This document shows positions 27,157 to 62,171 of a DNA stretch of 64,000 nt, piece by piece. Source of the stretch: an uncultured delta proteobacterium (lineage in GTDB: Bacteria; Desulfobacterota; Binatia; UBA9968); contig CAVUZH010000003.1 in NCBI GenBank assembly GCA_963745835.1, positions 864,001 through 928,000 of the forward strand, written 5' to 3'. The notes under the pieces are model-generated. The model worked only from the letters and a program-made list of their open reading frames with translations. It searched no databases and was not told where the DNA came from. Made by a program: the position numbers and the translations under genes. Position 1 is the stretch's first letter; every line of letters begins with the position of its first letter.

Positions 27157-27171
27157 TCGCCACCCACTTAA
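27143..27171 (+). repeat. 14-bp tandem duplication cgccacccacttaa x2
   Basis: Exact copies at 27143-27156 and 27158-27171. Confidence 0.85.
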
Positions 27172-27306
27172 ATGTATAAGACGTTAGAAACCTCTATCTC
27201 TTCCAAGAGCACGGCGTTAAGAAGGCGGCCCTTTCGATGCTGGGCGACATGTAAGCGGAATTTCATCTTTTTGTCGTTCTCGGCTCGGGCCTTATTAAAC
27301 TGAGCT

Positions 27307-40736: not shown

Positions 40737-41870
40737 GTGAAACTCATTACGGTCAAAGATTGCTATCCTCTCTGCATCATCGCCCTCATACAAGTAGCGA
40801 ATCGGATTCCTTCGCCTAAATTGAGGTTGTTTCTCGTGAAAGCCGTCGCCTCAATGGCGCACCGGTTGTCAACAACAAAAAAAAGACTCAGTGAAAAGAA
40901 TGTGGGCGAAATATTTGGCGGTCATTTAAGCAAGGAGCGGATCGAAGCAATCGTCAAATCCTCATTTTATGAATTTTGGCGCGAAATTTTTTTAATGTCG
41001 CCGAGCAAAATCCCAATGGCTCCGCTTAGGAAAGTCAATATTCATGGCCTGGACCATTTACAGAACGCGGTAAACAAAGGAAAAGGCGTCATATTGTGGG
41101 AGAGCAGCCATTTTGGCGGAAGGTTCCTGGCGAAACGAATCTTGTGTGAGAAAGGCTTTGCACTGCACCAAGTCCATGGCGAATATCACATGGCAGGACT
41201 TCCCAATAACGGAAGCTTTGGAAGCTGGACAAGGAAACATTTCATACGTCCTTTCTTCGAGAATTGCGAAAGCTGTTTCGTTAAAGAAACAATCCATATA
41301 ACCGCCGGGCACTCCCTCGCCGTTTCCAAGATTCTCTTGAAGCTGCTGAAGCAGAATAGCATTATTTGCATTAGCGCAGATGTTGGCCGTGGACATAAAT
41401 TAATTTCCGTCCGGTTCCTCGGCCGCACCGAATTGTTTCCAACAGGAATGGTCACTCTTGCAAAACTAACCGGGGCGCCGATTCTTCCTTTGTTCTGCCT
41501 CCAGGAAAATGGGAGTACGGCGAGTCTCATCATTGAGTCGCCTGTTTGTCTTGAAATGGATCCGGATCGAGAGAGCAATTTAACAAAGACCGTTATTCAG
41601 TACGTGGGTTTGTTGGAGTCGTATATTATGAAGTACCCGGAACAGTACCGAAATTGGCACTTACTCTGTTCGCCACTTAGGCCTATTCCAGAAGCACGAG
41701 CCGGTTACGCTCGCCCGCGCAGCTCTTTCTCAAAAGTGATTGATTCCCCAGTACTACGTGAAATCTTTATAGATGGGTTACATGTTAGAACAGCGCGACG
41801 TAAATCACGCGGCAATGTCGTTTCAGCTGAATCTAAAGTTGTTGTCTTTACTTCTCAAAGGCAACCATAA
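40737..41870 (+). CDS. LpxL/HtrB-like lysophospholipid acyltransferase family protein
   Basis: GLDHLQNAVNKGKGVIL..SHFG, VRFLGR..FPTG..LAKLTGAPILP and YPEQY.NW. Confidence 0.8.
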   Translation: MKLITVKDCYPLCIIALIQVANRIPSPKLRLFLVKAVASMAHRLSTTKKRLSEKNVGEIFGGHLSKERIEAIVKSSFYEFWREIFLMSPSKIPMAPLRKVNIHGLDHLQNAVNKGKGVILWESSHFGGRFLAKRILCEKGFALHQVHGEYHMAGLPNNGSFGSWTRKHFIRPFFENCESCFVKETIHITAGHSLAVSKILLKLLKQNSIICISADVGRGHKLISVRFLGRTELFPTGMVTLAKLTGAPILPLFCLQENGSTASLIIESPVCLEMDPDRESNLTKTVIQYVGLLESYIMKYPEQYRNWHLLCSPLRPIPEARAGYARPRSSFSKVIDSPVLREIFIDGLHVRTARRKSRGNVVSAESKVVVFTSQRQP

Positions 41871-42978
41871 AGCTGCAGGGGAACTATTGCAGGATGGTGC
41901 TGTTCGACCGGAAGATTTTATTCGCTTCGTCGAGCAGCATTGGTTACATCTTCTGGTTTTTCCTCTGCTCAACGGATCGCCGGCACGGAAATGGCTGCCG
42001 CGCAAGTGTTTCGCTGAACTTAAAGCTTACTCCTTACGACAATGGGCTACACAGGAGCGCCTGATCCGAGAACTTTTTGGTATTTCAACTCTCTTGGAAG
42101 CAGCCGGCCATGAGTTCATATTGCTCAAGGGACCTTATCTCGCCGAGCGGTTCTTCGGGGGTATCGATCGCCGCCCATTCTCGGACCTGGACATTCTTAT
42201 CAGAAGAGAAGATATCGCAGCGGTGGAACGGCGTTTGTGCGATAACGGTTTCGCCAACAACTCCTCTACTTTACTTAGCCGGCGACTCACTACTTATTTT
42301 ACCTATTCCTTTGACTTCGTTAAGCCCAATGTTGCGGTCGATCTGCATTGGCGTTTTTCGGCCCAGCTTACCCACCGTCTCGATTACCAAGCTATCTGGG
42401 AACAGAAACAAGTCTTCAGCTTGCGCACGCATCGTTTTTGGGTATTGCCCGACGAGTACGAAGTAGTTTTCAATCTCATCTCCATCTTCAAAGACCTGGA
42501 GATGGGTATCGCCCGTTTAAGATCCTTCGTTGATTTATACTTCATCCTTAGCCGAGTCGGTGACCAACTCGACTGGGAAGCATTTCGCGAACATCGGAAG
42601 CGTGAGAAGGTTCTCCGGATCTCCGTTAGTATTCTAAATTTGTTTTTCGAGTTGTTCGACTGCAGGGACGAATTTCCAAGGGTGGCTGCAATGGTTGCGG
42701 GCGAGGAGCGACAAATCAAGGTCGTTCCCGTAAAACACTACCGGGATTTAATGGACGTAGTTCCCGGAGCGGCGCGGAACAAGATGTGGGCGTCTGATCT
42801 ATACGAATGCTCCCGGTTCAATCTGTTTCTGTGGTGGGTCCTAGGGTTGCCGTTTCGTATCGCCGTCTACCATCCAGCCAAGTATGCTCGGATAAAAGAT
42901 ATGATGAATTGGATAGGTTTTGCGCGGCCCGAACGCAGACTTGAGGCAGACGCGCTCAGGGAAATGAATAATCAATAA
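41773..42978 (+). CDS. Nucleotidyltransferase family protein (NTP_transf_5)
   Basis: ILLKGPYLA, RPFSDLDILI, VDLHWRF and LRSFVDL. The probable start is at 41815. Confidence 0.88.
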   Translation: MGYMLEQRDVNHAAMSFQLNLKLLSLLLKGNHKAAGELLQDGAVRPEDFIRFVEQHWLHLLVFPLLNGSPARKWLPRKCFAELKAYSLRQWATQERLIRELFGISTLLEAAGHEFILLKGPYLAERFFGGIDRRPFSDLDILIRREDIAAVERRLCDNGFANNSSTLLSRRLTTYFTYSFDFVKPNVAVDLHWRFSAQLTHRLDYQAIWEQKQVFSLRTHRFWVLPDEYEVVFNLISIFKDLEMGIARLRSFVDLYFILSRVGDQLDWEAFREHRKREKVLRISVSILNLFFELFDCRDEFPRVAAMVAGEERQIKVVPVKHYRDLMDVVPGAARNKMWASDLYECSRFNLFLWWVLGLPFRIAVYHPAKYARIKDMMNWIGFARPERRLEADALREMNNQ

Positions 42979-43123
42979 ACACCTCGGTCAAACAGCCATT
43001 CGAGTCGGAAATTCGCCGCCTACCGAGAGATCGGCCTCAGCAGCACAACTTAATCAAGCTCATTCACGGGAAACCTGATTGACCCCTGAGTATCCAGCTT
43101 CTCTTCACTGTGGCGGTTCCGCT

Positions 43124-43885
43124 ATGCGTGTCGTGATCACCGGTGCCGCTGGCAGCATCGGCAGCCAATTGGTTGAGGAACTGTCCCGCTCCCATGAGCT
43201 GTGCCTTATCGACGTCCGTCCTATAAGCGGTCGAAGATCCATAATCGGCAATTTATCGGTGCTTCCAAGAGGCTGGCGGAGTTGGCTCAAACCAAAATCT
43301 ATGCACTGGAGCGAGGCGTTTAAGGGGGCTCAGGTAGTCGTCCATCTTGCCGCCGATATCGACCCTAAGGCGCTCTGGGAAAGCGTGCTCCCCAACAACA
43401 TTGAAGGAACCTGGAATGTTATCCATGCCGCAACCGAGCATGGGGTACGGCGGATCGTCTTCGCGAGCTCCAATTGGGCGGTGAAAGCGCTCGAGGAAAA
43501 ATTGGCGCCCGGCTGCTATCAACCGGACGGGCCAAAGATCGGTTCTGACGCGCCTCCATTTCCGCTGACGGCATATGGTCTATCAAAATCTTTTGGCGAA
43601 CTCGCCGGCAGGATGTTCGTCGACGAAGGAAAGCTGGAAACTTTTGTTGCCGTGCGCATAGGCAATTATGGGCCTAATCCTTCGAACGATGAGATGGTAC
43701 GCGGCCGCTGGATTGGCACAGACGACATACGCAGCCTTTTCAGGCGCTGTGTTGAAGCGGACCTCAGGGGTTTTCACGTGGTTTATGGGGTATCCGCGCA
43801 AAAGACAGCGCCTTATGACCTCTCGCACACACGTAAAGCGCTCTCGTGGCTTCCGCAGCAAGTTCCCGCCGACCACGAAACTTGA
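43124..43885 (+). CDS. NAD(P)-dependent extended SDR, uronate dehydrogenase-like, copy 1
   Basis: ITGAAGSIG, VHLAA, NNIEGTWNV, FASSN, YGLSK, VRIG and FHVVYGVS. Confidence 0.85.
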   Translation: MRVVITGAAGSIGSQLVEELSRSHELCLIDVRPISGRRSIIGNLSVLPRGWRSWLKPKSMHWSEAFKGAQVVVHLAADIDPKALWESVLPNNIEGTWNVIHAATEHGVRRIVFASSNWAVKALEEKLAPGCYQPDGPKIGSDAPPFPLTAYGLSKSFGELAGRMFVDEGKLETFVAVRIGNYGPNPSNDEMVRGRWIGTDDIRSLFRRCVEADLRGFHVVYGVSAQKTAPYDLSHTRKALSWLPQQVPADHET

Positions 43886-43907
43886 TCCACTCAGTGGAAC
43901 ACAAAAT

Positions 43908-44666
43908 ATGCGCGTTGTGATAACCGGCGCTGCCGGTCGCATCGGTCGTCAGATGGTAGAAGAGCTCTCTGACGCGTATGAACTTCGCCTCATAGACCGT
44001 GTGCGCCTGCCTCGGCGAAGGTCGATTGTCGCCGACCTTTCTCGAAGTCATGGCGGTCCGATGAAGCGCACCTGGCGGTGCTTTGGACGTTCGGCTTGGA
44101 TCGAATTGTTTCGGGGAGTCGATGTCGTGCTCCACTTGGCGGCAGATGTCCGCAACGATGCGCCATGGGATTCGGTATACGTTAATAACATAAAGGCTAC
44201 ATGGAACGTCCTTGAAGCTGCAGCGCGATATCAAGTACCTCGGGTGATCTTCGCCAGTTCAAACTGGGCGGTCAGATCGCTTGAGCAATCGTTGGCGCCG
44301 GCATGTTACCAGCCGGGCGGTCCCAAGATTGGCTCTGCCGCTTCGCCACAACCTCTCGGTCCGTACGGTATCTCCAAAGCTCTTGGCGAGCTTGCAGGGC
44401 GAATGTTCGTGGATCAGCGGCAGTTACGTTTATTCATCGCCGTTAGGATCGGCGCCTATGCGCCCGAACCCGAAAGGACCGATGAGAGGTTAAGCGCTCT
44501 CTGGATCGGTGTTCAGGATCTCCGCAGCCTGCTGCGCCGCTGCGTCGAATCATCATCGGAAGGATTTCATGTCGTCTATGGCGTTTCAGGTCAGACGACG
44601 ACGCCCTATGATTTATCGTACACGTGTAATTTTCTCTCGTGGCAACCGCGTCAAAGCGCTCTGTGA
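43908..44666 (+). CDS. NAD(P)-dependent extended SDR, uronate dehydrogenase-like, copy 2
   Basis: Tandem paralogue: ITGAAGRIG, FASSNWAV, YGISK and FHVVYGVS. The ATG at 43908 matches the copy 1 N-terminus. Confidence 0.85.
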   Translation: MRVVITGAAGRIGRQMVEELSDAYELRLIDRVRLPRRRSIVADLSRSHGGPMKRTWRCFGRSAWIELFRGVDVVLHLAADVRNDAPWDSVYVNNIKATWNVLEAAARYQVPRVIFASSNWAVRSLEQSLAPACYQPGGPKIGSAASPQPLGPYGISKALGELAGRMFVDQRQLRLFIAVRIGAYAPEPERTDERLSALWIGVQDLRSLLRRCVESSSEGFHVVYGVSGQTTTPYDLSYTCNFLSWQPRQSAL

Positions 44667-46897: not shown

Positions 46898-47882
46898 ATG
46901 GATTTTAAATACGACGTGGAAGCGGATTGGGTTCTGTTGACGACCTGCAATTTCCGTTGTGCCTACTGCTTTGTTCCGCTTCCTGACTTGGCGAGCAAGT
47001 TAACGACGCATGGCACGAATGTTCAGTGGGCGGAAGGATTCGCGGCAACCGAAAAGACCTGGCTATTGCACATAAGCGGGGGCGAACCTTCCATTTATCC
47101 GGGCTTCGTTGATCTGTGCGAAAAACTCAGTCGGCGTCATTACTTGTCAATTAATTCCAACCTGTCGCACCGGTGTATAGAAACCTTCGGGGAAACAATC
47201 GATCCGGAACGAGTTCATTTTATCAATGCAGCCGTGCACTATGACGAGAGGCCAAGGCCGAGATCGCTTGCGGCTTTCATAACTCGTGTGCAGAAGCTCC
47301 ATATGCACCGGTTTCATGTGTTTGTCTCCTTGGTTATGACTCCTATCATGGTGAGGAACTTTCCTGAAATATCGAGGTACTTCGAATCCCATGGATTATC
47401 TCTCATTCCAAAGGTTATGCGCGACCGATTCCAAGGGAAGGTCTACCCACATGCGTACTCTGGTGAGGAGAAGTCCCTCCTGCGTGAATATTTAGCGAAG
47501 GCAAGGGAGAACTATGTTTCAGTCAAAGCCGTGATGGGTGAAACACCGACGATTAACATGCTGGATGATGACAGGTTCCTGGATTGCCCTCGGAGTTATC
47601 GCGGTAAGCTCTGTGGTTCGCGACACAACTTTGTCCGCATCGAACCGAATGGAGCTGGTGGTCCGTTGTGGGTCGGCGATGCAACTTGGCAATATCCTTC
47701 TAAAAAATGTCGCTCTTCTTAACACGCCCAAACCTTGTGACAGTTTTTACTGTCCGTACTTTTGTGAGAAATACACGTCATCGCCATTCGCGCCTGCGCA
47801 AGAAACGAAGAGAGATCTTGGTGATTTTTTCGTGTCATTGAAGGCGTGGCGAGATTCGCAACGGCAACAGCCGGAGAGATAA
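46898..47882 (+). CDS. Radical SAM protein with C-terminal Cys-rich (twitch-like) extension, frameshift near 47655
   Basis: CNFRCAYC, SGGEP and NSNL; the C-terminus has LCGS..FVRIEPNG/VVRCG...LGNI...PCDSFYCPYFC. Confidence 0.85.
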
Positions 47883-47992: not shown

Positions 47993-48715
47993 TTGACGAC
48001 GGAGAACTACTTTACGGGATCATCTTTGATCTGCTGCATCGTGCCAGTTTACAACGGCGAAAAGTATTTGTCCGAGACGCTGGATAGTATTCTGGCGCAG
48101 ACGTATCGGCCTTTGGAGATACTCGTGGCCGACGATGGCTCGACGGGACCGCCTCGGTTGTGGCGAGTTATGGCGATCAGGTTCGACATCTATTCCAGCC
48201 TAACGCTCCAAACGGCCGCTATATGCAACTTGGGCCTCAGGACCGCGCAACGCGCCTTTCGTTTCGTGGATGCAGGACGATCTGTGGCATCCAGACAAGT
48301 TAGGAAGTCAGATAGCTCGTTTTTAGGTATGGCTTCAATTCGACGTGAGCGTCACACATGGGCCAAAATTTTTCGGTCATGGAGCTCGAGGAGGAACGTG
48401 AGCAGTTCCACGATCACGGGGTTTCACAACCCTACCCAGTATGTGCCGCAGGCGCTCCTGGCACGACGCACGCTGTTTAACACAGTGGGTTACTTCAGGT
48501 GTCCGCTCCCAGGCAGGTGGACGCTACCAATTGGTTTCTGCGCGCAGTTGAACATGGAGCATCCTGGAGTTGTTACCCGATGTTCTGGTGTATAGTCGCA
48601 TCCTCAGAATAACTTAAGTCGGCGCATGAGTTCTGCCAGCAGAAGTGAGTATCTGCAACTCTTGAAGTCCTCGTTAGATCGCCGGCGCCTTCAAAAAATC
48701 CGAAGACGCTGCTAA
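47993..48715 (+). pseudogene. Heavily frameshifted GT2 paralogue
   Basis: CIVPVYNGEKYLSETLDSILAQTYRPLEILVADDGST, YVPQALLARR and EYLQLLKSSLDRRR in different frames with many indels. Confidence 0.8.
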
Positions 48716-48875
48716 TGAGATTGGGACTGACTAGAAACGGTGTCAGACATTCGTGGTGTTCTCTAACGTCCATATTAAGGCCAAAGCTTTAAGGGAAGCA
48801 AAAGACCGATTGCCCCGAGGTTTAGCTAAGAAGTCGCGAGATTCTGTGTCCTAAACATCAATACATTAATCAACT

Positions 48876-48889
48876 AAGAGGAGGGTCCG
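48876..48889 (+). promoter_or_regulatory. Strong Shine-Dalgarno upstream of the PqqD/RRE gene
   Basis: aagaggagggtccgATG, preceded by an AT-rich spacer. Confidence 0.6.
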
Positions 48890-49339
48890 ATGTTAAGTTT
48901 AAAAGATCGTTTGCGTGTGAACGAAGAAGAGGTCGCTGCCAAGGTGATCGATGGCGAGGCGATCATCATCAACCTGGCCAACGGGGTCTACTACAGTATG
49001 GACAAAGTAGGGGCTCTGATGTGGGATGTACTTCAGGGAGGACATAGCTTAGAAGAAGCGATTGTGGCCATCACTGGCCAGTACGACGTTTCGCCTGAGC
49101 AGGCAGAATTGAATGTACGAGAGTTGGTCCAGGAGCTTGTGCAAGAGAATCTGCTGCGTCCTTCAGACAACGGCGTTACCGCTGATGCGTCAGGAACGAT
49201 TGAGCAGCAGGAAAAAATGCCATACGAGACTCCCAAGCTCAATATCTATAGGGATATGGGAGACCTCCTGGCACTCGATCCTCCGGTTCCCGGTCTCGGC
49301 GACACTCCCTGGAAAGAGCCCGAAGAGCCTTCCAAGTAG
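48890..49339 (+). CDS. PqqD-family (RiPP recognition element) protein with C-terminal leader-like extension
   Basis: VAAKVIDGEAIIINLANGVYYSMDKVGALMWDVL...YDV...AE..V.ELVQELVQENLL is the PqqD/RRE pattern. It is followed by a linker and MPYETPKLNIYRDMGDLLALDPP... Confidence 0.9.
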   Translation: MLSLKDRLRVNEEEVAAKVIDGEAIIINLANGVYYSMDKVGALMWDVLQGGHSLEEAIVAITGQYDVSPEQAELNVRELVQELVQENLLRPSDNGVTADASGTIEQQEKMPYETPKLNIYRDMGDLLALDPPVPGLGDTPWKEPEEPSK

Positions 49340-49412
49340 CGGGACGTGTGCGACTGGTAAGAGTACAAACTCGTTGATAGCTGCTGCTTCCCTTTATCCA
49401 AGGGCTTCATTC

Positions 49413-50114
49413 ATGGAACAACCGCTGATCAGTTGTATCATTCCGGTCTTCAATGGGGAGCGATATCTGGGCGAGGCACTCGACAGCATTCTCGCTCAGA
49501 GCTACCGACCCATCGAGATCATCGTCGTCGATGACGGATCCACCGATGGCACGGCTGGTGTCGTTGCTGCTTTTGGTGATCAGGTGCGCTACCTCAGGCA
49601 GAACAATCAGGGACCGTCGTCGGCGCGAAACTTGGGCATCCGCGCTGCCGCAGGCGGCTTCATTGCTTTTCTCGATGCAGACGATTTGTGGCATTCCGAA
49701 AAGCTACAACGACAAATGGACCGCTTCAAAACGCGTCGGGAACTGGACTATTGTGTAACGCATGTCCAGAATTTCTGGATTCCGGATCTCAGGGAGGAAG
49801 CAGCAAAGTATCGCGACCATCGCATCACGCGACCCATTCCGGGATACGTCACAGGAACGCTCCTTGGGCGTCGCGCCTTTTTTGAATCAGTGGGCTTATT
49901 CAACTTGGCTTTGGCCCACGGCGACAGCACCGAGTGGTTTTTGCGCGCAGCCGAACGCGGAGCGGTGATGGAACTTTTGCCGGAAGTCCTTATGTATCGT
50001 CGCCTGCACCCCACCAACCGCAGTCGGGTTCGCGCGGCTACTAGCCGTGAGGAGTATCTAAGGCTCGTGAAATTGTCGCTCGACCGCAGGCGCGGTTCCG
50101 AGCAGAACTCCTAA
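49413..50114 (+). CDS. GT2 (GT-A) glycosyltransferase, close paralogue of 46027
   Basis: ISCIIPVFNGERYLGEAL, VDDGSTD, FLDADDLW and QNFWI. The ATG at 49413 lies within ORF 49113. Confidence 0.93.
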   Translation: MEQPLISCIIPVFNGERYLGEALDSILAQSYRPIEIIVVDDGSTDGTAGVVAAFGDQVRYLRQNNQGPSSARNLGIRAAAGGFIAFLDADDLWHSEKLQRQMDRFKTRRELDYCVTHVQNFWIPDLREEAAKYRDHRITRPIPGYVTGTLLGRRAFFESVGLFNLALAHGDSTEWFLRAAERGAVMELLPEVLMYRRLHPTNRSRVRAATSREEYLRLVKLSLDRRRGSEQNS

Positions 50115-51948: not shown

Positions 51949-53844
51949 ATGTGTGGAATATTGGGGAAAATCACGTTTTCTGACGGGGGGTGCGCCGTCT
52001 CAGGAGAAGAGATCTCGCCCCGCCTCATCGGCCTGATGGCGCGCCGCGGCCCCGATAACGAAGGTCGTTGGAGTGATGGCCGAAGGTGCGCGATTGCGTT
52101 TCGTCGCCTCGCGATCCTGGACCTTTCCGACAGGGCCCATCAGCCGATGCTCACACCGGATGGACGCTTCGCCCTCGTCTGCAACGGAGAGGTCTACAAC
52201 TTTCGCGAGTTACGCAGCGAACTCGTTCACGAAGGCGTAAAATTTCGCTCGACCGGAGACACGGAAGTCATCCTGTACGCTCTCGTCCATTGGGGCCATC
52301 GCGCTTTGTCTCGCTTCAATGGCATGTTTGCCTTGGGTTTCTACGACTCGGTTGAAAAGCGCTTGCTCTTGGCTCGCGACCACGCCGGCATCAAGCCTCT
52401 TTACTACATGCTCACGTCCCGGGGTTTGGTGTTCGCCTCTCAATACGATCAGATTCTCGCTCACGGTTGGAGCCGTGAATCGCGTTCGTCTCCAGGGGCT
52501 CTGGGACTCTACCTGCGACTTGGTTACATTCCCGCGCCCTACGCGCTACTTCACGACACTTACATGCTCGAGCCCGGTGCCTGGCTGGAGATCTCAAGCG
52601 ATGGCCATCTTCATCGTGGCCGTTTCTTTGAGTTTCCAATCTGGCGTGAACCGACCCTCCGCGGCGAAGAGGCATTTGAAGCGGTGGACGCGGCGATCAC
52701 CGCAGCCGTGCGCCGCCACATGGTGAGTGACGTCCCTTTGGGTGCGTTTCTCTCAGGAGGCGTTGATTCTCCGCTCGTGACCGCCAAAATGCGGGCGGTG
52801 AGTAACGGCATCCTTCGGGCTTTTACCATCGGCACTAACGGAGACCATCACGACGAGTCGGCAGATGCCATTGCCTATGCCCGTGAGATCGGAGTCGAGC
52901 ACACGGTGGAGCACGCAACGCCAGACACGGCCCTGAAAATTCTGGATGATGTGGTAGCCGCCTGCGGGGAACCTTTCGCCGATTTTTCTATCTTCCCCAC
53001 CATGTTGGTATCACGACTCGCCCGCCAAGAGGTCAAAGTCATAGTCTCCGGAGACGGCGGTGATGAACTATTCTGGGGATATCCCGACCGTTTCGCGTCG
53101 GTGCTGGATAAGCTGGCTATACTGAACCAGGCACAGCACGCGGGAAATCCCGGCTGGCATCTAAAGAGATTGCTCGCCACCGACCGGGCCGGGCCGGATC
53201 CGCGCTGGCCAGGCAGCATCGGCGACATTTATCGAATCAAACACACCCATCTCTCCGAAGGCTGGCTCAAGCGTATTTTTCCCGACCTTCCGGACTGGCC
53301 GGCTGATTTCTCTCTCTTCACTTACACGGGCTTGGAGCCCGATCGGACCGCGCAGTGGCTGCGTTGGAATGAGTTTGTGGGTAACTTGACCAGGATTCTT
53401 CTAAAAGTGGATCGGGGCAGCATGTATCATTCGCTGGAAGTGAGAGTGCCGTTTTTGGACCGGGAGGTTGTTGAGACAGCAAGCCGCGTAGACTGGCGCT
53501 CCTGTCTGGATGTGAAACAGAGGCTCGGCAAGTTGCCGCTCCGCCATTCACTGGCGCGCCATGTGCGCCACCAAACCTGGACCAAGCGAGGTTTCACCGT
53601 CCCAATGGACCAATGGCTCCGGGGACCTCTGAGGCAGGTCTTTGAAGAGACCCTGCTCGACCGCCGGGAACTCGCAGGTCTCCCTCTGAATAGAGCAGCC
53701 GCGCGCGAGATGTTCGGCCGGCACCTTTCGGGCCAAGTCAACTACGATTGGCCGCTTTGGATGTTACTGAGTCTCGCTTTGTGGGAGAAGCATCACTATG
53801 GCGAAAGTCGTACTGTCCGCCATTCGCTGAGCAACATGATTTGA
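51949..53844 (+). CDS. asnB: Asparagine synthase (glutamine-hydrolysing)-like amidotransferase
   Basis: N-terminal MCGI (Ntn Cys), RGPD, RRLAILDLS, NGEVYNF, FLSGGVDS, SGDGGDELF and EVRVPFLD. Confidence 0.92.
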   Translation: MCGILGKITFSDGGCAVSGEEISPRLIGLMARRGPDNEGRWSDGRRCAIAFRRLAILDLSDRAHQPMLTPDGRFALVCNGEVYNFRELRSELVHEGVKFRSTGDTEVILYALVHWGHRALSRFNGMFALGFYDSVEKRLLLARDHAGIKPLYYMLTSRGLVFASQYDQILAHGWSRESRSSPGALGLYLRLGYIPAPYALLHDTYMLEPGAWLEISSDGHLHRGRFFEFPIWREPTLRGEEAFEAVDAAITAAVRRHMVSDVPLGAFLSGGVDSPLVTAKMRAVSNGILRAFTIGTNGDHHDESADAIAYAREIGVEHTVEHATPDTALKILDDVVAACGEPFADFSIFPTMLVSRLARQEVKVIVSGDGGDELFWGYPDRFASVLDKLAILNQAQHAGNPGWHLKRLLATDRAGPDPRWPGSIGDIYRIKHTHLSEGWLKRIFPDLPDWPADFSLFTYTGLEPDRTAQWLRWNEFVGNLTRILLKVDRGSMYHSLEVRVPFLDREVVETASRVDWRSCLDVKQRLGKLPLRHSLARHVRHQTWTKRGFTVPMDQWLRGPLRQVFEETLLDRRELAGLPLNRAAAREMFGRHLSGQVNYDWPLWMLLSLALWEKHHYGESRTVRHSLSNMI

Positions 53845-53885
53845 TTCCCTGCCTATTTGCGGGGTGGTCCGACAGTGATTACGCG

Positions 53886-56204
53886 ATGCGGGTACTTTTC
53901 TGGTCGACTTTGTTTTGGCCCTACATTGGAGGATCCGAGTACTTCGGCGCCAAGTTGGTTTCCGCGTTGCGGGAGCGCGGGTACGAGTTGATCGTTTTAA
54001 CATCGCACGATTATCTCGATCTTCCCGACGAGACACACTACCAGGGCATTCCGATCTATCGGCTTCCGTTGTTGCAGGCTCTACGTGACAGCGATGCCAG
54101 CCGGTTCATCGAGATCTGCCAGAAGGTGAAGAAGCTCAAGCGAACCTTCAAGCCGGACTTGGTGCACTTGAACGGCGTCAATTCGACCACCGTGTTCCAT
54201 CTCAGGACAGTCGATGCGGAACCGGCGGCTACTTTGGTTCGGGTTAACCAAGAGCTGCTGCCGCACCAGCACCTTGGGCCGGAGACGATCTTCAGCCAGA
54301 CACTTCGCTCCGCCCGTTGGACAACCTGTGTCTCATCCGCAGTGTTGAAGCACGCTAGTCGGTTGGTGCCTGAGATTGCAAGACGCTCATCCGTTATTTA
54401 CAACGGCTTGGAAGTTCCATCCTTTTCCCCGACGCCGCTCTCGTTTGAAGCGCCTCGTTTGATGTGTGTGGGACGTCTGGTCCCGGCGAAGGGATTCGAC
54501 CTAGCATTGGTCGCATTGGCCTCGATCATCAAAAGATACCCCAACATCCGCCTGGTTATTGCCGGTGACGGACCGGACCGGCTTCAACTGGAACGGCAAA
54601 CCTCTCAACTCGGTCTGAGCGAGGTCGTCGAATTTCTTGGGTTGGTGGAGCCGGAAAAGGTGCTCGCTCTGATCAATCGGGCCACACTGGTACTGATCCC
54701 GTCCCGCTACGAGGGACTTCCGACGGTTGCCTTGCAGGCCGCGCTTATGGCCCGGCCGATTGTGGCAACACGGGTTGGAGGACTGGCGGAAGCGGTGATC
54801 GATCGGCAGACTGGTTTGCTAGTTGAGAGCGGTGACAGTCATAGCCTTGCGGAGGCGATTGCATTCTTGCTGAGTAATCCTCAAGGAGCGATCGAGATGG
54901 GAACGGCCGGTCGAAAGCGGGTGCAACAACTTTTCCTTTGGCAGCGCTGCGTCGACGCCTATGACGCTCTTTACAAAAGATTGATTGCCAGGACCGATAC
55001 GGGAAAGTCGCTTCAATCGCATGAGCCGGAAGCCGAGAATGCCGTCCAGCCATCAACCTCCCGTCTCCAAACGCAGAGAAATCAACCAGTGATGATGCGG
55101 GTCTTATTCTGGTCGGAGCTGTTTTGGCCCTATATAGGGGGCGCTGAAGTGTTCGGCACGAAACTTCTGCATGCTCTGCGACAGCGCGGTCATGACGTCA
55201 TCGTCGTGACACGCCAGGATTCGCCGGATCTTCCCCACAAAGACCAGTATCAGGGAATCCCCGTTTATCGCTTTCCGTTCTTGACGGCGTTTGCCAATCG
55301 CAGCGTGGATCAATTGATCGCGGCTCGGCAAGAGTTGGCCAAGCTCAAGCGCGAGTTTGCGCCCGACTTGGTCCATATACACGGTTTCGGGCCGAGCGTG
55401 CTTTTTCATCTGGACACAACTCAGGCGCATCCTTCCCCGTTATTGGTCACGTTGGTAGAAGAGCGACAACACCGAGAGGGCCGTGACCTGTTGGATCGGA
55501 TGCTGCGGGCGGCCGATTGGATCACCGGCAAATCGACGGCCGTGCTGGCGCAAGCGCGTCGATTCGTTCCCGAGATTGCGACCCGCTCGTCGGTCATTCA
55601 AAATGGTTTGGCAGTTCCGGCGCTCCTACCGGGACCGCTCCCTACCGATGCACCGCGGCTGCTGTGTTTAGGGCGGCTCGCCGTCCAGAAAGGATTTGAT
55701 CTCGCCCTAACGGCGTTGGCCTCGATTCATGATCGCTTTCCCCATGTTCGTCTGACCATCGCCGGCGATGGGCCTGAGCGGCCTACCTTGGAGCGGCAAG
55801 TTTCCGAACTGGGTCTCACGAATGTCGTCGATTTTATAGGTTGGGTTTCACCTGATGAGATATTCGCTCTAATAAATACATCTAGCATTGTCATAATGCC
55901 CTCTCGGTGGGAGGGACTCCCTTCGGTCGTACTGCAAGCGGCTATTATGGCGCGTCCGGTGGTGGCAACCCGCGTCTCGGGTCTTTCGGAAGTCGTAGCC
56001 CATCAGAACACCGGCCTACTTGTCGAACCCGAAGACGCCTGGGCTCTAGCCGAAGCGATCACTTCGCTGCTCGAACAGCCCGAAGCCGCCGTGCGGATGG
56101 GCCGGGCAGCCCGCCGGCGGGTCCAAGAACTATTTAGTTGGGAGCGTTGCGTGAGCGCTTACGAAGCTCTCTGGCGCCGCCTCGTAATGGACCGGCGCGG
56201 ATAA
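53886..56204 (+). CDS. Tandem GT4-GT4 fusion glycosyltransferase
   Basis: Two complete GT-B units in one frame. Each starts MRVLFWS..FWPYIGG.E (53886 and about 55092) and has GRL...KGFD and EGLP motifs. Confidence 0.85.
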   Translation: MRVLFWSTLFWPYIGGSEYFGAKLVSALRERGYELIVLTSHDYLDLPDETHYQGIPIYRLPLLQALRDSDASRFIEICQKVKKLKRTFKPDLVHLNGVNSTTVFHLRTVDAEPAATLVRVNQELLPHQHLGPETIFSQTLRSARWTTCVSSAVLKHASRLVPEIARRSSVIYNGLEVPSFSPTPLSFEAPRLMCVGRLVPAKGFDLALVALASIIKRYPNIRLVIAGDGPDRLQLERQTSQLGLSEVVEFLGLVEPEKVLALINRATLVLIPSRYEGLPTVALQAALMARPIVATRVGGLAEAVIDRQTGLLVESGDSHSLAEAIAFLLSNPQGAIEMGTAGRKRVQQLFLWQRCVDAYDALYKRLIARTDTGKSLQSHEPEAENAVQPSTSRLQTQRNQPVMMRVLFWSELFWPYIGGAEVFGTKLLHALRQRGHDVIVVTRQDSPDLPHKDQYQGIPVYRFPFLTAFANRSVDQLIAARQELAKLKREFAPDLVHIHGFGPSVLFHLDTTQAHPSPLLVTLVEERQHREGRDLLDRMLRAADWITGKSTAVLAQARRFVPEIATRSSVIQNGLAVPALLPGPLPTDAPRLLCLGRLAVQKGFDLALTALASIHDRFPHVRLTIAGDGPERPTLERQVSELGLTNVVDFIGWVSPDEIFALINTSSIVIMPSRWEGLPSVVLQAAIMARPVVATRVSGLSEVVAHQNTGLLVEPEDAWALAEAITSLLEQPEAAVRMGRAARRRVQELFSWERCVSAYEALWRRLVMDRRG

Positions 56205-56266
56205 ATCCCAATTCAAAGCTCATACCTTCGCAAGTTTGCCGCGAGATCGCCCCTCGATGAGAAATA

Positions 56267-57385
56267 ATGATGCGTGTCTTATTCTGCTCCATTAACTTTT
56301 GGCCGCATATCGGAGGCGTGGAGGTTCTCGCTGCAAAGTTCCTTCCGGCCTTGAGAGAGCGCGGTTACGAATACGTCGTAGTCGCGCCGAAAAATCATCC
56401 GGATCTGCCCGATGAAGACTCTTACAACGGAATTTTCGTGCATCGTTTTTCTTTCTATAACGACTTTAACCGCAATGGTATGGACCATGTTATGGACACG
56501 CGGCAAAAGTTGCGCAATCTGAAGCGCTCTTTTGCGCCTAACCTCATCCATATAAACGCCGTCGGCGTCGAGAATTTTTTTCACGTTTCGACGGCGGACG
56601 CACATCAATCTCCGGTGCTCGTTACCTTGCATGGAAAATGGAAGAGTCGGGCTGATGCAATCGTTGGCCAAACTCTCCGCAGCGCCGACTGGATCGTAGG
56701 CTGCTCGGCGGCCATTCTGGAGCAGGGTCGCAGGTTGGCGCCAGAGATCGCCTGCCGCTCGTCTGTTATTCACAACGGCGTGGGGGCGCCGTCTCTCTCG
56801 CCTGAGCCGATGGCATTCGATTCACCGCGGCTGCTTTGCTTAGGTCGCCTCGCACCTGAAAAGGGCTTCGATCTAGCGCTGGCCGGATTCGGGAGAATCC
56901 TTCATCGCTTTCCTCGAGCGCGTCTCATTATAGCCGGGGACGGCCCCGCCCGCGGTAAACTGGAACGACAGGCGGCAGAACAAGGCATCCGGCGCGCGGT
57001 TGAATTCACGGGCTGGATCGACCCTGAGCAAGTGCCGGCTTTGATCAATCGGGCCACTCTAGTTGTTATGCCGTCTCGCGATGACTCCCTCCCCCTGGTG
57101 GCCTTAGAAGCGGCTCGGATGGCTCGGCCGGTGGTGGCGACTCGCGTTGGTGGAATTCCCGAAATCGTTGTGCATCAAGAGACCGGCGTGCTCGTCGAAA
57201 AAGAAGACACCAACGGCCTGGTCCACGCAATCGGTTTGTTGCTTGGCAATCCGGAAGCTGCTGTTGCGATGGGCCAAGCAGCTCAAAGACGCATAGAAGT
57301 GGCGTTCAGTTGGAAAAAGCACGTCGATGCTTATGACGCTCTGTACCGAAGACTTATTGAGAATAGTCCCACCCGGGTGGTCTGA
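56267..57385 (+). CDS. GT4 family glycosyltransferase (paralogue)
   Basis: MRVLFCSINFWPHIGGVE, LGRLAPEKGFD and DSLPLVALEA. Confidence 0.92.
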   Translation: MMRVLFCSINFWPHIGGVEVLAAKFLPALRERGYEYVVVAPKNHPDLPDEDSYNGIFVHRFSFYNDFNRNGMDHVMDTRQKLRNLKRSFAPNLIHINAVGVENFFHVSTADAHQSPVLVTLHGKWKSRADAIVGQTLRSADWIVGCSAAILEQGRRLAPEIACRSSVIHNGVGAPSLSPEPMAFDSPRLLCLGRLAPEKGFDLALAGFGRILHRFPRARLIIAGDGPARGKLERQAAEQGIRRAVEFTGWIDPEQVPALINRATLVVMPSRDDSLPLVALEAARMARPVVATRVGGIPEIVVHQETGVLVEKEDTNGLVHAIGLLLGNPEAAVAMGQAAQRRIEVAFSWKKHVDAYDALYRRLIENSPTRVV

Positions 57386-57409: not shown

Positions 57410-58336
57410 ATGTCTGCGATGCCATTTGTTCGAGGCTTTTCTATATCGGCTCGGCCTATAACAGGCTCGAAGAACGCGATTCCCTTGTTTGAACGCTTGC
57501 TAATCGAGTCCCAATCGAATTGCAATCGCTCGTGCTGGTTCTGTCCTCGCACTTATGATCGGTCCGGAAAGTATCTCGACGCAGCCGGCAAGCCGCTGCT
57601 CAATCAGATACCCACGGAAAAGATCCTCGATCTGCTCGATCAAGCGCAGGCTTTGGGGTTCAGAGGAGGCGTGGGATTTCATCACTACTCCGAGCCCTTG
57701 CTAGACAAACGCAACATCATGCTTGCCCGGGAAGCGAGGAAACGGGGCATGAAGCCCGACCTGCACACCAACGGGGATGTGCTCAAACATGATGACGCGC
57801 TGTGCGAGGAAGTTAAGAACGTCTACGAACTTATTGTCATTGGTCTGTACGACTACAAGACCAACGAGGAGCTTCACGAAAGTAAGCGGTACTGGCAGAC
57901 CAGACTAACTGGCGCCAATCTCAAGTTTAGCTCTATTGGCCTTTCGAGAGCTGGCGCGAGTTACAGCATTGGGATTCCCAAGGCGCTGGTGCCGTGGGAT
58001 CCGCGCATGGCCGTTCCTGACTTTACATTTGCCAATGCGCCCTGCCACCGTCCCCTCATCCGAATGATCATCCAACATGACGGCGAGGTGTGCAATTGCT
58101 GTGAGGACACGACCGGAGCCTTCAAGCTAGGCAACGTCTATCAGTATACCCTCGAAGAGTTATGGTACTCCGAGCACCACGTCGAAGTCGTCAGGGATCT
58201 CATCGTCGGCCGGCGAGAGAAGTATAACCTTTGCCGGAACTGCCCACTGCCTCCGACAGGTTCAGCACCGAGGGGCACCAAAATCGACATCGCTCCGAGA
58301 CGCTACGGTTTAACAACATATCAAGAGAGCAAATAA
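57410..58336 (+). CDS. Radical SAM/SPASM domain protein
   Basis: CNRSCWFC, YSEPLLD and HTNG; SPASM region CHRP..MIIQHDGEVCNCCED...LGNV...LEELW...CRNC. Confidence 0.9.
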   Translation: MSAMPFVRGFSISARPITGSKNAIPLFERLLIESQSNCNRSCWFCPRTYDRSGKYLDAAGKPLLNQIPTEKILDLLDQAQALGFRGGVGFHHYSEPLLDKRNIMLAREARKRGMKPDLHTNGDVLKHDDALCEEVKNVYELIVIGLYDYKTNEELHESKRYWQTRLTGANLKFSSIGLSRAGASYSIGIPKALVPWDPRMAVPDFTFANAPCHRPLIRMIIQHDGEVCNCCEDTTGAFKLGNVYQYTLEELWYSEHHVEVVRDLIVGRREKYNLCRNCPLPPTGSAPRGTKIDIAPRRYGLTTYQESK

Positions 58337-58372: not shown

Positions 58373-60439
58373 ATGTGTGCTATCGCTGGAATCATCAATC
58401 TCAACGGTCAACCGGTCAACGTTAGCTTACTCCGTAGGATGAACGATCAACTTCGTCACCGCGGTCGTGATGATGAAGGGTATGTCTTCATCCAGCCAGA
58501 CGGTTCGTGGGCCGAATACTCCGGAGCTGATACCCCGAGACCTCTTCTTGATACTTACCCGGCATTGCTGGATTCGCACCATCATTTCCCCTTCGCTATT
58601 GGCCTCGCCCATCGGCGCTTTGCGATTGTTGATCTGACGACAAGAGCGCATCAGCCGTTTTTCGACTCTGACAAGGTTTGCTGTGCCGTCTTCAATGGGG
58701 AAATTTTTAATTATCTAGAGTTGCGGGATGACCTCGTGAAACTCGGACATCGCTTTCGCTCGGCTTCCGACACTGAAGTGATTGTTGAAGCATATAAGGC
58801 TTGGGGAGTTGAATGCTTTTCTCGCTTCAATGGGATGTGGGCGATGGCTTTGTATGACTTTAGAAATAAACGTTTGATTGTGAGCCGAGATCGCTTAGGC
58901 GAGATTCCACTCTATTGGGCCAGAATTCGGGATTCGGTTTATTTCGCTTCTGAAATTAAAGCCTTGCTCGGAGTTTCAAGTACTCAGTCAGTTAATGAGG
59001 CCGCCATTTATCCCTATTTGGTCCGCGGTTTCCAACATGTGAACGACGAAACTTTCGTTGAGGGCATCTCTAGTTTTCCGGCTGCCACTTGGGCAGTGCT
59101 GGACCAAAATTTTCCGACCACCGCTCGACGGTACTGGCAGGCTCCAGGGCGGCGATTTGCCGAACGCGACGTGTGCGTGAGCGAAGCGATTCGCTCCATT
59201 CAAGACACACTTCAAGATGCGGTGCGTATTCGCTTGCGCGCGGATGTCCCTTGCTGCGTGACGTTGAGTGGTGGTCTGGACTCATCGGTGTTAGTTGCAT
59301 TGGCTGCTCAGTGTTCTGGGACAAAGGTAATAGCTCATACAGTCCGATTTGCGGAGAAGCAATGTGATGAAGAACCGTTTGCCCGTGCCGTTGCGCGCTA
59401 TTGTGGCGCGGAGCATCGTATCGTAGACCCGCCGCTGCACAACTTCTGGCATGAAATTCTTCCCTTTACGTATCTCGCAGAGGAGCCGTATCATGCCCCG
59501 AATATTTATATCAGACAATTATTCCACCGCGCGATGCGATCGGAAGGGTTTAAGGTAGTTTTGGTGGGCGAAGGCGGGGACGAGCTTTTTGCCGGCTATT
59601 GGAGGCATTTTGATATTCTACAAACGGAAGCCCTGCGGGCTCATCGGTTTGGCATGTTTCTGGACAATCGTTTGCGTTGGTCAGAAACCGATACCCACTT
59701 AAAACCACTAGCCAGACTCATCCTGCGGAAGATTAAGTGGAGTGTGCTGCACCCTTATCTGTCTATATTCAAAGCCAGCAGTGCTACACGCCAGGCAAAA
59801 TCCGAGCGTATGGATGGATATGTCAATCTGCCACCCCTTATGCACAACGGGGACTACTCTCGGGCGACTTTATCTCAGGTGCTGTATGATGAGGTCACCA
59901 GCACTAGTATTCCCTATTGGGTCCGGGCCAATGATAGAATGCGCATGGGCATTCCTATCGAGGGTCGATCGCCATTTCTCGATTATCGCGTGGTCGAGTT
60001 AGGGTTGACGTTGCCCGTGACTTATCTCATTCGACACGGTTGGCATAAATGGATACTGCGAAAAGCCTTCCAGGAGCTATTGCCACAAGAGGTCGTTTGG
60101 CGAAAGCAGAAGGCGGGCTTTCCTACTCCATTTCAGCGCTTCGTTGTAACTAGCCCGCCGACCATCCAGAGGCTGCTCAAGCAACTGCACAATCCTTACG
60201 TTGATTTGCCGTTGTTTGAGCGTTTTGCAAAGCATTGCGCGCAAAACCGCAACGAATGGAGCGCGCATATCCACTGGTGGCGTATGATCAGTTTTTTGCT
60301 TTGGTACGAACTGTTCGTCAACCATAACCAGGAACTCTTCGCAAGGATCCAAGAAGAACAACGTGACAGCACCAATTATGTCCACGACGAGTTCGAGCCA
60401 CAGTTTCTGCACTCCTGTATTGGTGCCAGGACTGTATGA
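58373..60439 (+). CDS. asnB: Second asparagine synthase-like amidotransferase
   Basis: MCAIAG, HRGRDDEG, HRRFAIVDL, NGEIFNY, LSGGLDSS, GEGGDELF, EGRSPFLDYR and KWILR. Confidence 0.92.
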   Translation: MCAIAGIINLNGQPVNVSLLRRMNDQLRHRGRDDEGYVFIQPDGSWAEYSGADTPRPLLDTYPALLDSHHHFPFAIGLAHRRFAIVDLTTRAHQPFFDSDKVCCAVFNGEIFNYLELRDDLVKLGHRFRSASDTEVIVEAYKAWGVECFSRFNGMWAMALYDFRNKRLIVSRDRLGEIPLYWARIRDSVYFASEIKALLGVSSTQSVNEAAIYPYLVRGFQHVNDETFVEGISSFPAATWAVLDQNFPTTARRYWQAPGRRFAERDVCVSEAIRSIQDTLQDAVRIRLRADVPCCVTLSGGLDSSVLVALAAQCSGTKVIAHTVRFAEKQCDEEPFARAVARYCGAEHRIVDPPLHNFWHEILPFTYLAEEPYHAPNIYIRQLFHRAMRSEGFKVVLVGEGGDELFAGYWRHFDILQTEALRAHRFGMFLDNRLRWSETDTHLKPLARLILRKIKWSVLHPYLSIFKASSATRQAKSERMDGYVNLPPLMHNGDYSRATLSQVLYDEVTSTSIPYWVRANDRMRMGIPIEGRSPFLDYRVVELGLTLPVTYLIRHGWHKWILRKAFQELLPQEVVWRKQKAGFPTPFQRFVVTSPPTIQRLLKQLHNPYVDLPLFERFAKHCAQNRNEWSAHIHWWRMISFLLWYELFVNHNQELFARIQEEQRDSTNYVHDEFEPQFLHSCIGARTV

Positions 60440-61046: not shown

Positions 61047-62171
61047 ATGCGAATTCTTTTTTGGTCTGAAACCTTTTGGCCTAGAATCGGCGGAGTAGAG
61101 AATCTCGCAGCCAGGTTACTGCCGGCCTTACAATCGCGGGGGCATGAGTTCGCCGTGATTACTTGGGACAATGTAGAGGATGCCGACCAAATCCTCTATC
61201 AAGAGATTCCCGTGTATCGTTTTCCTTTTTTTTCAGGAAGGCACCGAGACAGCCTGGGATCTATGATCGAAAATCGCCGGGAGATCGCCTTGCTCAAGCA
61301 GCAGTTTGCACCCGACCTCGTTCATATCAACTCGTATGGCCGTAGTGTTTTGTTTCATCTTAATACGATCAGCGCGCACCCGGCTTCCGTGTTGGTTACA
61401 TTGCACCAGGCGCTTCCAGATGAACCGGTTGCGAATGACAGTTTATTGGGTCATGTCCTGCGTACGGCGGATTGGGTAACTACTTGCTCGAGCGCGGTGT
61501 TGACTCACGCTCGACGGCTTATGCCTGAAGTCATTCCATGTTCTTCGGTTATCCTCAATGGGCTGGAGCCGCCGCCTTTCGATCCGCCACCCATCCCTTT
61601 CGATTTGCCGCGGATATTGTGTCTTGGTCGGCTGGTTCCAGAGAAGGGATTCGATTTGGCATTGGCGGCATTCGAAAGGGTTTTCCGGCGCTTCCCAAGT
61701 GCCCGTTTGGTGGTCGCCGGCGAAGGTCGTCAAGCGGGCAAGTTGAAACAGCAAACAGTCGAATTGGGATTAACTGATTGTGTAGAATTCATCGGCGCCG
61801 TCCCCCCAGAGAAGGTGGCTGACTTAATTGCACAGTCGACTCTCGTGCTGATACCGTCGCGGTTGGAAGGGTTTGGGTTGGTTGCAATAGAGGCTGGAGC
61901 GATGGCTCGTCCGGTGGTCGCAACTCGCGTTGGAGGACTCCCGGAAGTGATAGTCCATGAAGAGACAGGTCTCCTCGTCAATCAGGAAAGCAGTCCCGCG
62001 CTAGCCGATGCCATTTCGCTTTTGCTCGACCACACCGAGGTCGCGGTGCAAATGGGCGAGGCGGGTCGACGGCGGGTTGAGGAGGTCTTTAGTTGGGAGC
62101 GCTGTGTGGACGCGTACGATACCGTCTATCGAAAACTAGCCGCGACGAAACAGGAAGCGATAGGCTTTTGA
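61047..62171 (+). CDS. GT4 family glycosyltransferase (paralogue)
   Basis: MRILFWSETFWPRIGGVE, LGRLVPEKGFD and EGFGLVAIEA. Confidence 0.93.
   Translation: MRILFWSETFWPRIGGVENLAARLLPALQSRGHEFAVITWDNVEDADQILYQEIPVYRFPFFSGRHRDSLGSMIENRREIALLKQQFAPDLVHINSYGRSVLFHLNTISAHPASVLVTLHQALPDEPVANDSLLGHVLRTADWVTTCSSAVLTHARRLMPEVIPCSSVILNGLEPPPFDPPPIPFDLPRILCLGRLVPEKGFDLALAAFERVFRRFPSARLVVAGEGRQAGKLKQQTVELGLTDCVEFIGAVPPEKVADLIAQSTLVLIPSRLEGFGLVAIEAGAMARPVVATRVGGLPEVIVHEETGLLVNQESSPALADAISLLLDHTEVAVQMGEAGRRRVEEVFSWERCVDAYDTVYRKLAATKQEAIGF

Follow-up and report, generated by a model that had tools for sequence, protein, structure and literature searches.

What does a peptide-recognition domain do with a leader-like sequence that is part of its own chain? 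The question is raised by an open reading frame (ORF) of 149 amino acids at 48890 to 49339 (+ strand) in a 64,000-nucleotide stretch, referred to below as the window, of contig CAVUZH010000003.1 (positions 864,001 to 928,000; assembly GCA_963745835.1, an uncultured delta proteobacterium of the Binatia). The encoded protein joins a RiPP recognition element (RRE; RiPP, ribosomally synthesised and post-translationally modified peptide) to a tail of 40 residues bearing a YxxPxL motif. It is best read as a 'self-leadered' RRE, in which a domain of the kind found in the B1 proteins of lasso peptide clusters and in LPP clusters (LPP, linear polyphosphorylated peptide; the lasso-free lppA-K-B-S-D-N clusters in capsule loci of Bacillota; Popov et al., Nat Commun 2026, PMC13381572) has its cognate leader fused to its C-terminus via a flexible linker of 18 residues. 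A first-pass annotation, made from the sequence alone, had given the ORF, its 40-residue tail, the position of Met110 and a strong ribosome-binding site, and all of these were found as claimed when the sequence was read directly. The gene is made up as follows.

48878 to 48885, + strand: Shine-Dalgarno sequence GAGGAGGG, with GGAGG at 48880-48884 and a 5-nt spacer to the ATG at 48890
48890 to 49165, + strand: RRE, a PqqD-type winged helix-turn-helix domain, residues 1-92 (Pfam, AlphaFold2, Foldseek, profile)
49166 to 49219, + strand: variable polar linker, residues 93-110, including Met110 (ATG 49217) (column entropy; AlphaFold2 predicted local distance difference test, pLDDT, 65-69)
49220 to 49252, + strand: leader-like, putative docking strand P-Y-E-T-P-K-L-N-I-Y-R, residues 111-121 (conservation, AlphaFold2)
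49253 to 49297, + strand: near-invariant motif D-M-G-D-L-L-A-L-D-P-P-V-P-G-L, residues 122-136 (lowest entropy)
49298 to 49339, + strand: distal tail G-D-T-P-W-K-E-P-E-E-P-S-K and stop, with Trp141 semi-conserved and the acidic/proline end variable

The Pfam PqqD family (PF05402) matched residues 23-89 of the protein (E 2e-14; 54.1 bits against a cut-off of 23.4). For finer comparison an alignment of 128 homologues was used, 33-83% identical to the window protein and picked for a length of 130-165 amino acids and an LDPP-like motif, a selection which inflates the counts at positions 129-132 only and leaves 112-123 unaffected. An AlphaFold2 model built on this alignment had pLDDT values of 81-93 for residues 1-90, with strands at 7-10, 15-20, 23-28, 33-38 and 89-92 and helices at 40-49, 54-64 and 69-85; by AlphaFold2 and Foldseek it has the winged helix-turn-helix with a three-stranded sheet and three helices by which members of the fold are recognised. 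The six best Foldseek matches in the PDB were the leader complexes of TbiB1 (5v1v/5v1u, E 5e-6) and TfuB1 (6jx3), with target template-modelling scores of up to 0.92 (0.91 for TbiB1). When the profile of the alignment was compared with PDB sequences it matched TbiB1 (3.5e-21), PbaB1 (9x90, 5.9e-15), LppB (9x8z, 1.2e-9) and TfuB1 (2.5e-9), whereas true PqqD scored just 3e-4. The N-terminal domain is an RRE of the lasso-B1/LPP kind and not a true PqqD, and the earlier description of a lasso-type RRE of about 90 residues followed by a polar linker was borne out by Pfam, Foldseek and the profile alike. The curated NCBIfam models for lasso B1 proteins stayed below their cut-offs (NF033536, 53.1 bits against 80; NF033530, 38.3 bits against 70), as they also did for ten out of ten other family members, and no curated NCBIfam model covers the tailed RRE family or its tail.

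The tail belongs to the family as a whole. A word-indexed search returned 1321 relatives, the best 120 of which all span 98-100% of the query at lengths of 147-183 amino acids, and an exhaustive search of 50%-identity representatives gave 6849 matches, 1023 of them with E <= 1e-10. Among the best 150 representatives, which are mostly of 135-160 amino acids and match end to end, the pattern [YF]xxPx[LIMFV]xx[aromatic]x[DE][MLIV] was present in 133 and a DM..LL.LDP-type motif in 130. The family tail motif is Y-x-x-P-x-L-x-x-Y-x-D-M-x-D-L-L-A-L-D-P-P-x-P..P-W, so that the conservation of YxxPxL..YxDMxDLLxLDP that had been predicted holds family-wide; a minority variant reads ..LDPIH[ED]VD..GWP instead of ..LDPPxPGL..PW. 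In the alignment of 128, counts in the putative docking strand were 122/128 for Y112, 124/128 for P115 and 119/128 for L117, and in the distal motif 123/128 for D122, 122/128 for M123, 126/128 for D130 and 127/128 for P131, while Trp141 was kept in 82/111. Mean column entropy was 2.04 bits in the RRE, 3.44 in the linker, 2.04 at 111-120, 1.09 at 121-136 and 3.18 over the last eight residues. Residues 121-136 are the best conserved part of the protein and approximately the last eight residues alone vary, which leaves no room for the 'variable distal core' of the first-pass annotation; because this segment is the most conserved, the tail is to be regarded as part of the protein and not as a variable core. 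RiPPs in general have a conserved leader and a variable core that is modified and released; here it is the 'core' at 121-136 that is best conserved, and no peptidase was found in the loci scanned. AlphaFold2 gave the motif at 122-136 a pLDDT of 60 and then 44, and it is predicted to be flexible. Searched alone, the tail matched no NCBIfam family even at E 10, gave one chance-level match among PDB sequences (E 0.31) and no usable match in the ESM Atlas.

How the tail may sit on the domain is suggested by the same model. Block 111-120, in which YETPKLNIY is placed, has a pLDDT of 94 between flanks of 69 and 60, and the model has a strand at 118-120, right behind L117; the structure prediction proposed as a check on YETPKL therefore returned a confident placement. 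Docking of the YxxPxL segment on the RRE, whether in cis or between protomers, is predicted only. In the PbaA/PbaB1 complex residues E-9 to L-7 of PbaA extend the RRE sheet of PbaB1 (PMC13381572), and the predicted strand at 118-120 falls at the same place. The model also contains short terminal strands at 7-10 and 89-92, and in the solved RRE complexes two short terminal strands hold the N-terminus and the C-terminus in place (PMC13381572).

The residues that would receive the strand can be compared one by one. In LppB the leader Tyr is held by a bond to D70, N33 keeps the Pro kink in place, and the pockets are lined with F74, M78, L83 and Y60 (PMC13381572). Hidden Markov model alignment places D70 at position 75 of the family (112/128 D; 8/128 N, which is also the residue of the window protein), N33 at D38 (78/128), and F74, M78, L83 and Y60 at L79 (100/128), L83 (119/128), L88 (107/128) and Y65 (100/128), respectively. 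The near-invariant Y34 aligns with the corresponding Tyr of the TfuB1 chain; in fusilassin, Phe-6 and a Tyr on a beta-strand of TfuB1 together make up a patch (PMC6784204). As judged from these alignments, the leader-binding groove residues of the lasso B1 type are conserved in the family.

The tail can likewise be read in the register of a leader. Y112, P115 and L117 are spaced as in the [Y/W]xxPx[L/V] leaders that are bound in the RRE groove (PMC13381572), and M123 (122/128) is a hydrophobic residue at Tyr+11, matching Phe-6 of fusilassin and the Ile of the LPP consensus. At Tyr+15, lasso and LPP leaders have the Thr that directs cleavage (position -2 and -1, respectively); the family has Leu there (L127; L in 111/128, F in 13/128). 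The protein thus has the motif and the hydrophobic residue of a lasso leader, with Leu127 in the place of Thr and no gene of its own, and the first-pass annotation had been right both in calling YxxPxL leader-like and in remarking that the Thr(-2) context was lacking. Tyr+18, where the polyphosphorylated Ser3 of LppA sits (PMC13381572), is Asp130 (126/128), which is a match of register between aligned sequences and no evidence of homology.

A leader peptidase was sought by Pfam scans of 46 window ORFs (all those of at least 150 amino acids, plus the tailed RRE gene) and of 15 related loci, namely 11 from records of metagenome-assembled genomes (MAGs) and four from three genomes of the window's phylum. 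No B2 leader peptidase (PF13471) was found among the 46 window ORFs or 182 (127 + 55) related-locus ORFs, the sole match in the genome being marginal (25.8 bits) and on another contig, and no member of a signal-peptidase family was found in the scanned window ORFs or in related-locus ORFs of over approximately 100-110 amino acids. That the protease is missing had been said at the outset, and none of the B2 type was indeed found in the locus. Because Tyr+15 is Leu127 and no leader peptidase was found, the tail is probably never released.

If the tail is a leader, it could still be made as a separate peptide, as had also been suggested: a 40-residue product translated from ATG 49217 would then act as a free precursor. 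ATG 49217 is preceded by ...gcaggaaaaa, with a weak AGGA 5 nt upstream, and a stand-alone search with the tail did recover nine short tail-only proteins. Against these stand 1321 full-length homologues, and only 13 of 253 homologues have Met at the place of Met110, the others often having residues that cannot start a protein (A, G, S, R, Q and E, also T, P and K). Moreover, at least five of the nine short proteins begin within the last helix of the RRE or in the linker, and none of the nine is on a contig longer than 5.7 kb, because of which most of them look like truncated calls. A free precursor is therefore highly improbable.

It was also considered whether the tail only imitates a leader, filling the groove until a separate, true precursor displaces it and so gating the pathway. 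The motif and groove are as in real leader-RRE pairs, and related cassettes such as those of the LPPs do have separate precursors (PMC13381572). On the other hand, a motif search of the window and 16 further loci found no leader-like ORF apart from the tails themselves, the tail motif was single-copy in the genome, and in a search for split forms none turned up at a distance of up to 1.5 kb from eight PqqD genes without a tail in the window's phylum. (Extra matches to the regular expression did recur, and were rejected as leaders; they fall in the active-site region of PF14907 enzymes and are a coincidence of pattern.) A plug alone would have no need of the DM..LDPP segment, which is the best conserved part, and relatives with more than one RRE keep one strand per domain: two-RRE relatives carry two [YF]xxPx-hydrophobic strands and three-RRE relatives three, with the DM..LDP motif once only, at the C-terminus. 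In an AlphaFold2 model of the two-RRE relative P0122 the two strands lie in blocks of pLDDT 94/90 and 97. An auto-inhibitory mimic is consequently unlikely.

What, then, would a self-leadered RRE present, and to which enzymes? The genes around it in the window are the following; L013 is the locus record that runs on past the window end.

41773 to 42978, + strand: PF14907 (NTP_transf_5) nucleotidyltransferase (Pfam E 7e-37)
L013:4349-5560, just past the window end: second PF14907 gene (Pfam E 2.1e-37)
46898 to 47722, + strand: radical SAM protein of 274 amino acids (Pfam PF04055)
49413 to 50114, + strand: small family 2 glycosyltransferase (GT2) of 233 amino acids, directly 3' of the tailed RRE gene (PF00535, E 1.4e-35)
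51949 to 53844, + strand: glutamine-hydrolysing amidotransferase of the asparagine-synthase type, with a second copy at 58373-60439
53748 to 57385, + strand: family 4 glycosyltransferases (GT4), a double GT4 of 818 amino acids and then a GT4 of 372 amino acids (Pfam), with another at 61047-62171
57410 to 58336, + strand: radical SAM/SPASM protein of 308 amino acids with no RRE domain of its own (PF04055 and PF13186)
62173 to 63282, + strand: HprK-like P-loop kinase 1, 369 amino acids (TIGR04352 57.5 bits, cut-off 200; PF07475 19.8 bits, below cut-off)
63236 to 64000, on to L013:1382, + strand: HprK-like kinase 2, 381 amino acids (PF07475 E 8e-8; TIGR04352 49 bits)

These parts are spread over a polysaccharide locus of approximately 60 kb on one strand. 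The two HprK-like genes are tandem paralogues (62173-63282, and 63236 onward, L013:237-1382), 38% identical and with a 47-nt overlap, and in 11 related loci the kinase-like genes next to the tailed RRE share 25-46% identity with kinase 1. By record title the 11 MAG loci are from delta-, beta- and gamma-proteobacteria, Methylomirabilis, Binatia, Rhodothermales and Bacteroidetes. Of the 15 related loci, 12 have an HprK-like kinase of the type seen in the window, in many cases as the adjoining gene, at least 14 have a small GT2 (L008 lay outside the tblastn search), eight have PF14907 by Pfam and two more by tblastn, ten have a GT4 beside the tailed RRE gene, six have radical SAM (with genes like the radical SAM/SPASM gene at 57410 in L003, L004 and L029) and three have asparagine synthase. 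Absences from these loci are weak evidence because ORFs were called crudely, as the longest ones, and several contigs are short. TIGR04352 gave 31-52 bits in three of four kinases of the related loci (cut-off 200), the fourth, which is fused to a GT2, having no TIGR04352 match and 36.8 bits with TIGR04355 only. That fusion (L029:6527-8311, - strand) joins an HprK-like domain and GT2 in 595 amino acids; in a second fusion (P0280, 511 amino acids; three member sequences on one 17-kb contig) a GT4 precedes the RRE and tail, and the GT4 C-terminus takes the place of the first RRE strand. The full-length tailed form was found in just 4 of 201 sampled genomes of the phylum, so that its distribution, given matches in many phyla, is patchy within the phylum and broad across phyla.

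From this company we infer that the tail is modified, and what chemistry this might be. Recognition and decoration of the tail by the enzymes that travel with it is, by analogy with known systems, held to be about evenly balanced between true and false. The Tyr, Pro and Leu knobs of Y112-x-x-P115-x-L117 would lie in the protein's own hydrophobic groove and residues 118-120 would add a strand to its sheet, and because these occupy the groove the RRE would be permanently loaded. The flexible D122-M-x-D-L-L-A-L-D130-P-P-x-P-x-L..P-W segment and acidic end would be held out to the HprK-like kinase, the PF14907 nucleotidyltransferase and the small GT2, which in the window are accompanied by the GT4s, amidotransferases and radical SAM enzymes of the large polysaccharide locus. 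HPr-kinase homologues phosphorylate Ser of RRE-bound lasso or LPP precursors, and in pseudomycoidin a nucleotidyltransferase adds hexoses to the phosphate (PMC8498205; PMC13381572); decoration by a phosphate-linked sugar, much as in lasso peptides and LPPs that are phosphorylated and glycosylated, would be most likely, on a tail that is not cleaved off. LppB is insoluble without its leader (PMC13381572), which would be a reason for fusion in cis. The main argument for the tail as substrate is that compact cassettes such as L030 have no other candidate target among their genes.

Several observations weigh against this reading, and chief among them is the absence of a conserved hydroxyl acceptor. 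The Thr, Ser and Tyr residues that the first-pass annotation had offered as acceptors are not conserved, no hydroxyl residue being conserved after position 120 in the homologue alignments: Y120 is F in 21/128, 23 of 130 homologues have no Ser or Thr at all after LDPP, and the last residue, Lys in the window protein, is Ser in 12 of 130 diverse homologues. (A penultimate Ser is present in 115 of 120 close homologues, that is, in the close clade only.) LppK-type kinases are strict for Ser (PMC13381572). Neither window kinase reaches a curated family cut-off, both remaining under the 200 bits of TIGR04352 (HPr-rel-A). Linkage is weaker in the window than in compact cassettes, since 13 kb separate the kinases from the tailed RRE gene and 6 kb the nucleotidyltransferase. 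A 'core' with hardly any variation is not usual in a RiPP and would suit a binding motif just as well. As to docking, complexes of RREs with leaders were part of the training data of AlphaFold2, which may just reproduce them, and covariation between the strand and the beta3/alpha3 groove was not significant (6 of the 15 top pairs against approximately 3.9 expected, random-set p ~0.21, 135 sequences).

The same facts suit a protein that only assembles enzymes: the pseudo-leader would cap the RRE for stability and DMxDLLALDPPxP would recruit or assemble one or more glycan enzymes acting elsewhere (their target could be a sugar, a lipid carrier or another protein), and the tail would never be modified. 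Binding motifs typically combine very strong conservation with predicted disorder, a conserved acceptor (Ser, Thr or Tyr) is lacking, the GT4 of P0280 is joined directly to the RRE, the gene is embedded in a 60-kb polysaccharide locus, and the part of the LPP leader beyond the RRE contact has been proposed to serve in addressing and binding the modifying enzymes (PMC13381572). Such a scaffold or adaptor is nevertheless considered possible but rather unlikely, since the kinase and nucleotidyltransferase families are known solely as peptide-tailoring enzymes (PMC8498205; PMC13381572) and since cassettes such as L030 offer them no other candidate target. For the self-leadered RRE as a modified protein, a bolder form, rather unlikely, may be stated: RRE, leader and 'core' in one polypeptide would constitute a new, phylum-spanning class of ribosomally made, enzyme-decorated proteins, in which a sugar chain linked through phosphate or carboxyl would be built by the kinase, the PF14907 enzyme and the GT2 at or near the invariant Asp130-Pro-Pro, in the register of the polyphosphorylated Ser of LPPs, the protein serving as primer or anchor for the glycan of the locus. 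Taken as a whole, the interpretation from which this work set out kept its lasso-type RRE, its leader-like motif and its conservation, and lost its separate peptide, its variable core and its conserved acceptors.

The two asparagine synthases of the window were tried as lasso cyclases and rejected, as they have an Ntn-type Met-Cys start and score as glutamine-hydrolysing AsnB (TIGR01536, 349 and 388 bits against a cut-off of 267; lasso cyclase NF033535, 130 and 243 bits against 525). Directly upstream of the tailed RRE, a GT2 gene (47993-48680) looks degenerate: its first ~45 and last ~30 residues can be aligned well, in one frame, with the paralogue at 49413, conservation is poor in the catalytic middle (DAGR at the DADD position), an in-frame stop is present, and Pfam matches residues 15-51 only. 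The 818-amino-acid ORF at 53748-56204 is two complete GT4 units in tandem, both of which open with an MRVLFWS.LFWPYIGG-type N-terminus, as do the GT4s at 56267 and 61047. As to the MsbA-like exporter of LPP clusters, an ABC_membrane plus ABC_tran protein is encoded at 23331-25193, 24 kb upstream; an ABC protein adjoins in L010 and none was seen in most other loci. Past the HprK-like pair lie two DUF6817/HD proteins, an SMP-30/gluconolactonase-like piece over two ORFs, the second PF14907 gene and a GT4. Eleven ORFs of 150-600 amino acids in the same one-strand locus, within 1838-19268 and 25194-28940, had no Pfam match at E 1e-4 (starts at 1838, 5790, 7858, 8255, 10891, 12882, 15793, 17856, 25194, 27307 and 27849). 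Two NAD-dependent epimerase paralogues are consecutive at 43079-43885 and 43668-44666, and in L002 (partly also in L011) such an epimerase pair and an N-acylglucosamine 2-epimerase precede the tailed RRE gene. L002, titled as a delta proteobacterium MAG, has three tailed RRE copies within 9 kb (motif at 6528, 11969 and 14555), all with the same tail sequence in the stretch flanking the motif; GT2 paralogues lie between them, as does a radical SAM gene that follows one of the copies and is 89% identical to that at 46898.

A promoter scan of 48400-49600 gave no signal exceeding shuffled sequence, and a terminator scan of the same interval gave three weak terminator-like sites with no clear meaning. 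In RNA libraries, where carry-over of DNA is possible, single 151-nt contigs from runs X18 and X19 overlap parts of the tailed RRE gene and a 712-nt contig of a relative (X20) spans the 3' end of the gene into the GT2. Soil metagenome contigs from at least six studies, not counting the possible source study, contain the stretch 48600-49800 or close relatives that share at least half of its words.

RREs have been understood as adaptors that grip a separate leader, and a natural, ancient and very widespread form that carries its leader would be a new use of the fold; the 1023 clusters (50% identity, E <= 1e-10) come from the record-title groups named above for the MAG loci. If the reading is true, self-leadered RREs would explain some of the approximately 4,000 orphan lasso-type RREs, and would tie peptide-tailoring enzymes, the HprK-like kinase and the PF14907 transferase, to polysaccharide loci in groups other than Bacillota. 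Mass spectrometry and mutagenesis have concrete, cheap targets in the near-invariant motif of 15 residues and in the Asp at the register of the LPP phospho-Ser. New in this analysis are the residue-level match of the groove, the Thr-to-Leu and Ser-to-Asp changes in register, the rule of one strand per RRE and the two gene fusions. No natural RRE-leader fusion, and no such cassette outside Bacillota, was found in the literature covered, which did not extend to the supplementary data of RRE-Finder and the LPP report.

Among known systems, the lasso B1 proteins (TbiB1, 5V1V/5V1U; TfuB1, 6JX3; PbaB1, 9X90) are the best matches in sequence and fold and share the groove residues and motif spacing; here, by contrast, no B2 peptidase or cyclase is found in the locus, the leader is in cis and there is no Thr at -2. 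Leader-enzyme fusions have been engineered, for example with the cyanobactin heterocyclase LynD, and the cis leader is said to keep the recognition site occupied. Those fusions are man-made and have the leader on the enzyme, whereas the present one is natural and has it on a stand-alone RRE. RRE-Finder found no peptidase and cyclase near about half of some 8,000 discrete lasso RRE matches, and its main account treats such orphans as possible false positives or unknown classes and describes no fused leader (PMC7470986); the tailed RRE family fits the description of these orphans.

Paeninodin/pseudomycoidin-type tailoring (PMC8498205, PMC7533575) likewise has an HPr-kinase homologue and a nucleotidyltransferase beside a PqqD-type RRE, and in Butyrivibrio a GT2 as well, with Ser phosphorylated and hexoses added to the phosphate. 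The target there is the C-terminal Ser of a separate peptide, while the protein here ends in Lys and its kinases are distant (49-57 bits). The LPP clusters come closest: they share a discrete lasso-derived RRE with an HprK-like kinase and an NTP transferase, a combination that is present in the window, no lasso machinery, a setting in a polysaccharide locus, a YxxPx[V/L] leader motif and an RRE, LppB (9x8z), that matches the family profile (1.2e-9). They differ in that their precursor is separate and reads YxxPxVLxHQxIxFETxxS, with phospho-Ser at core position 3 and Thr at the cleavage position, whereas the tailed family has a different consensus with Asp at Tyr+18 and Leu in the place of Thr, no SpI-type leader peptidase was found here, and the leader is fused to the RRE C-terminus. 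A small GT2 is a core member here, and whereas LPPs are reported from Bacillota only (PMC13381572), the tailed RREs span many Gram-negative phyla.

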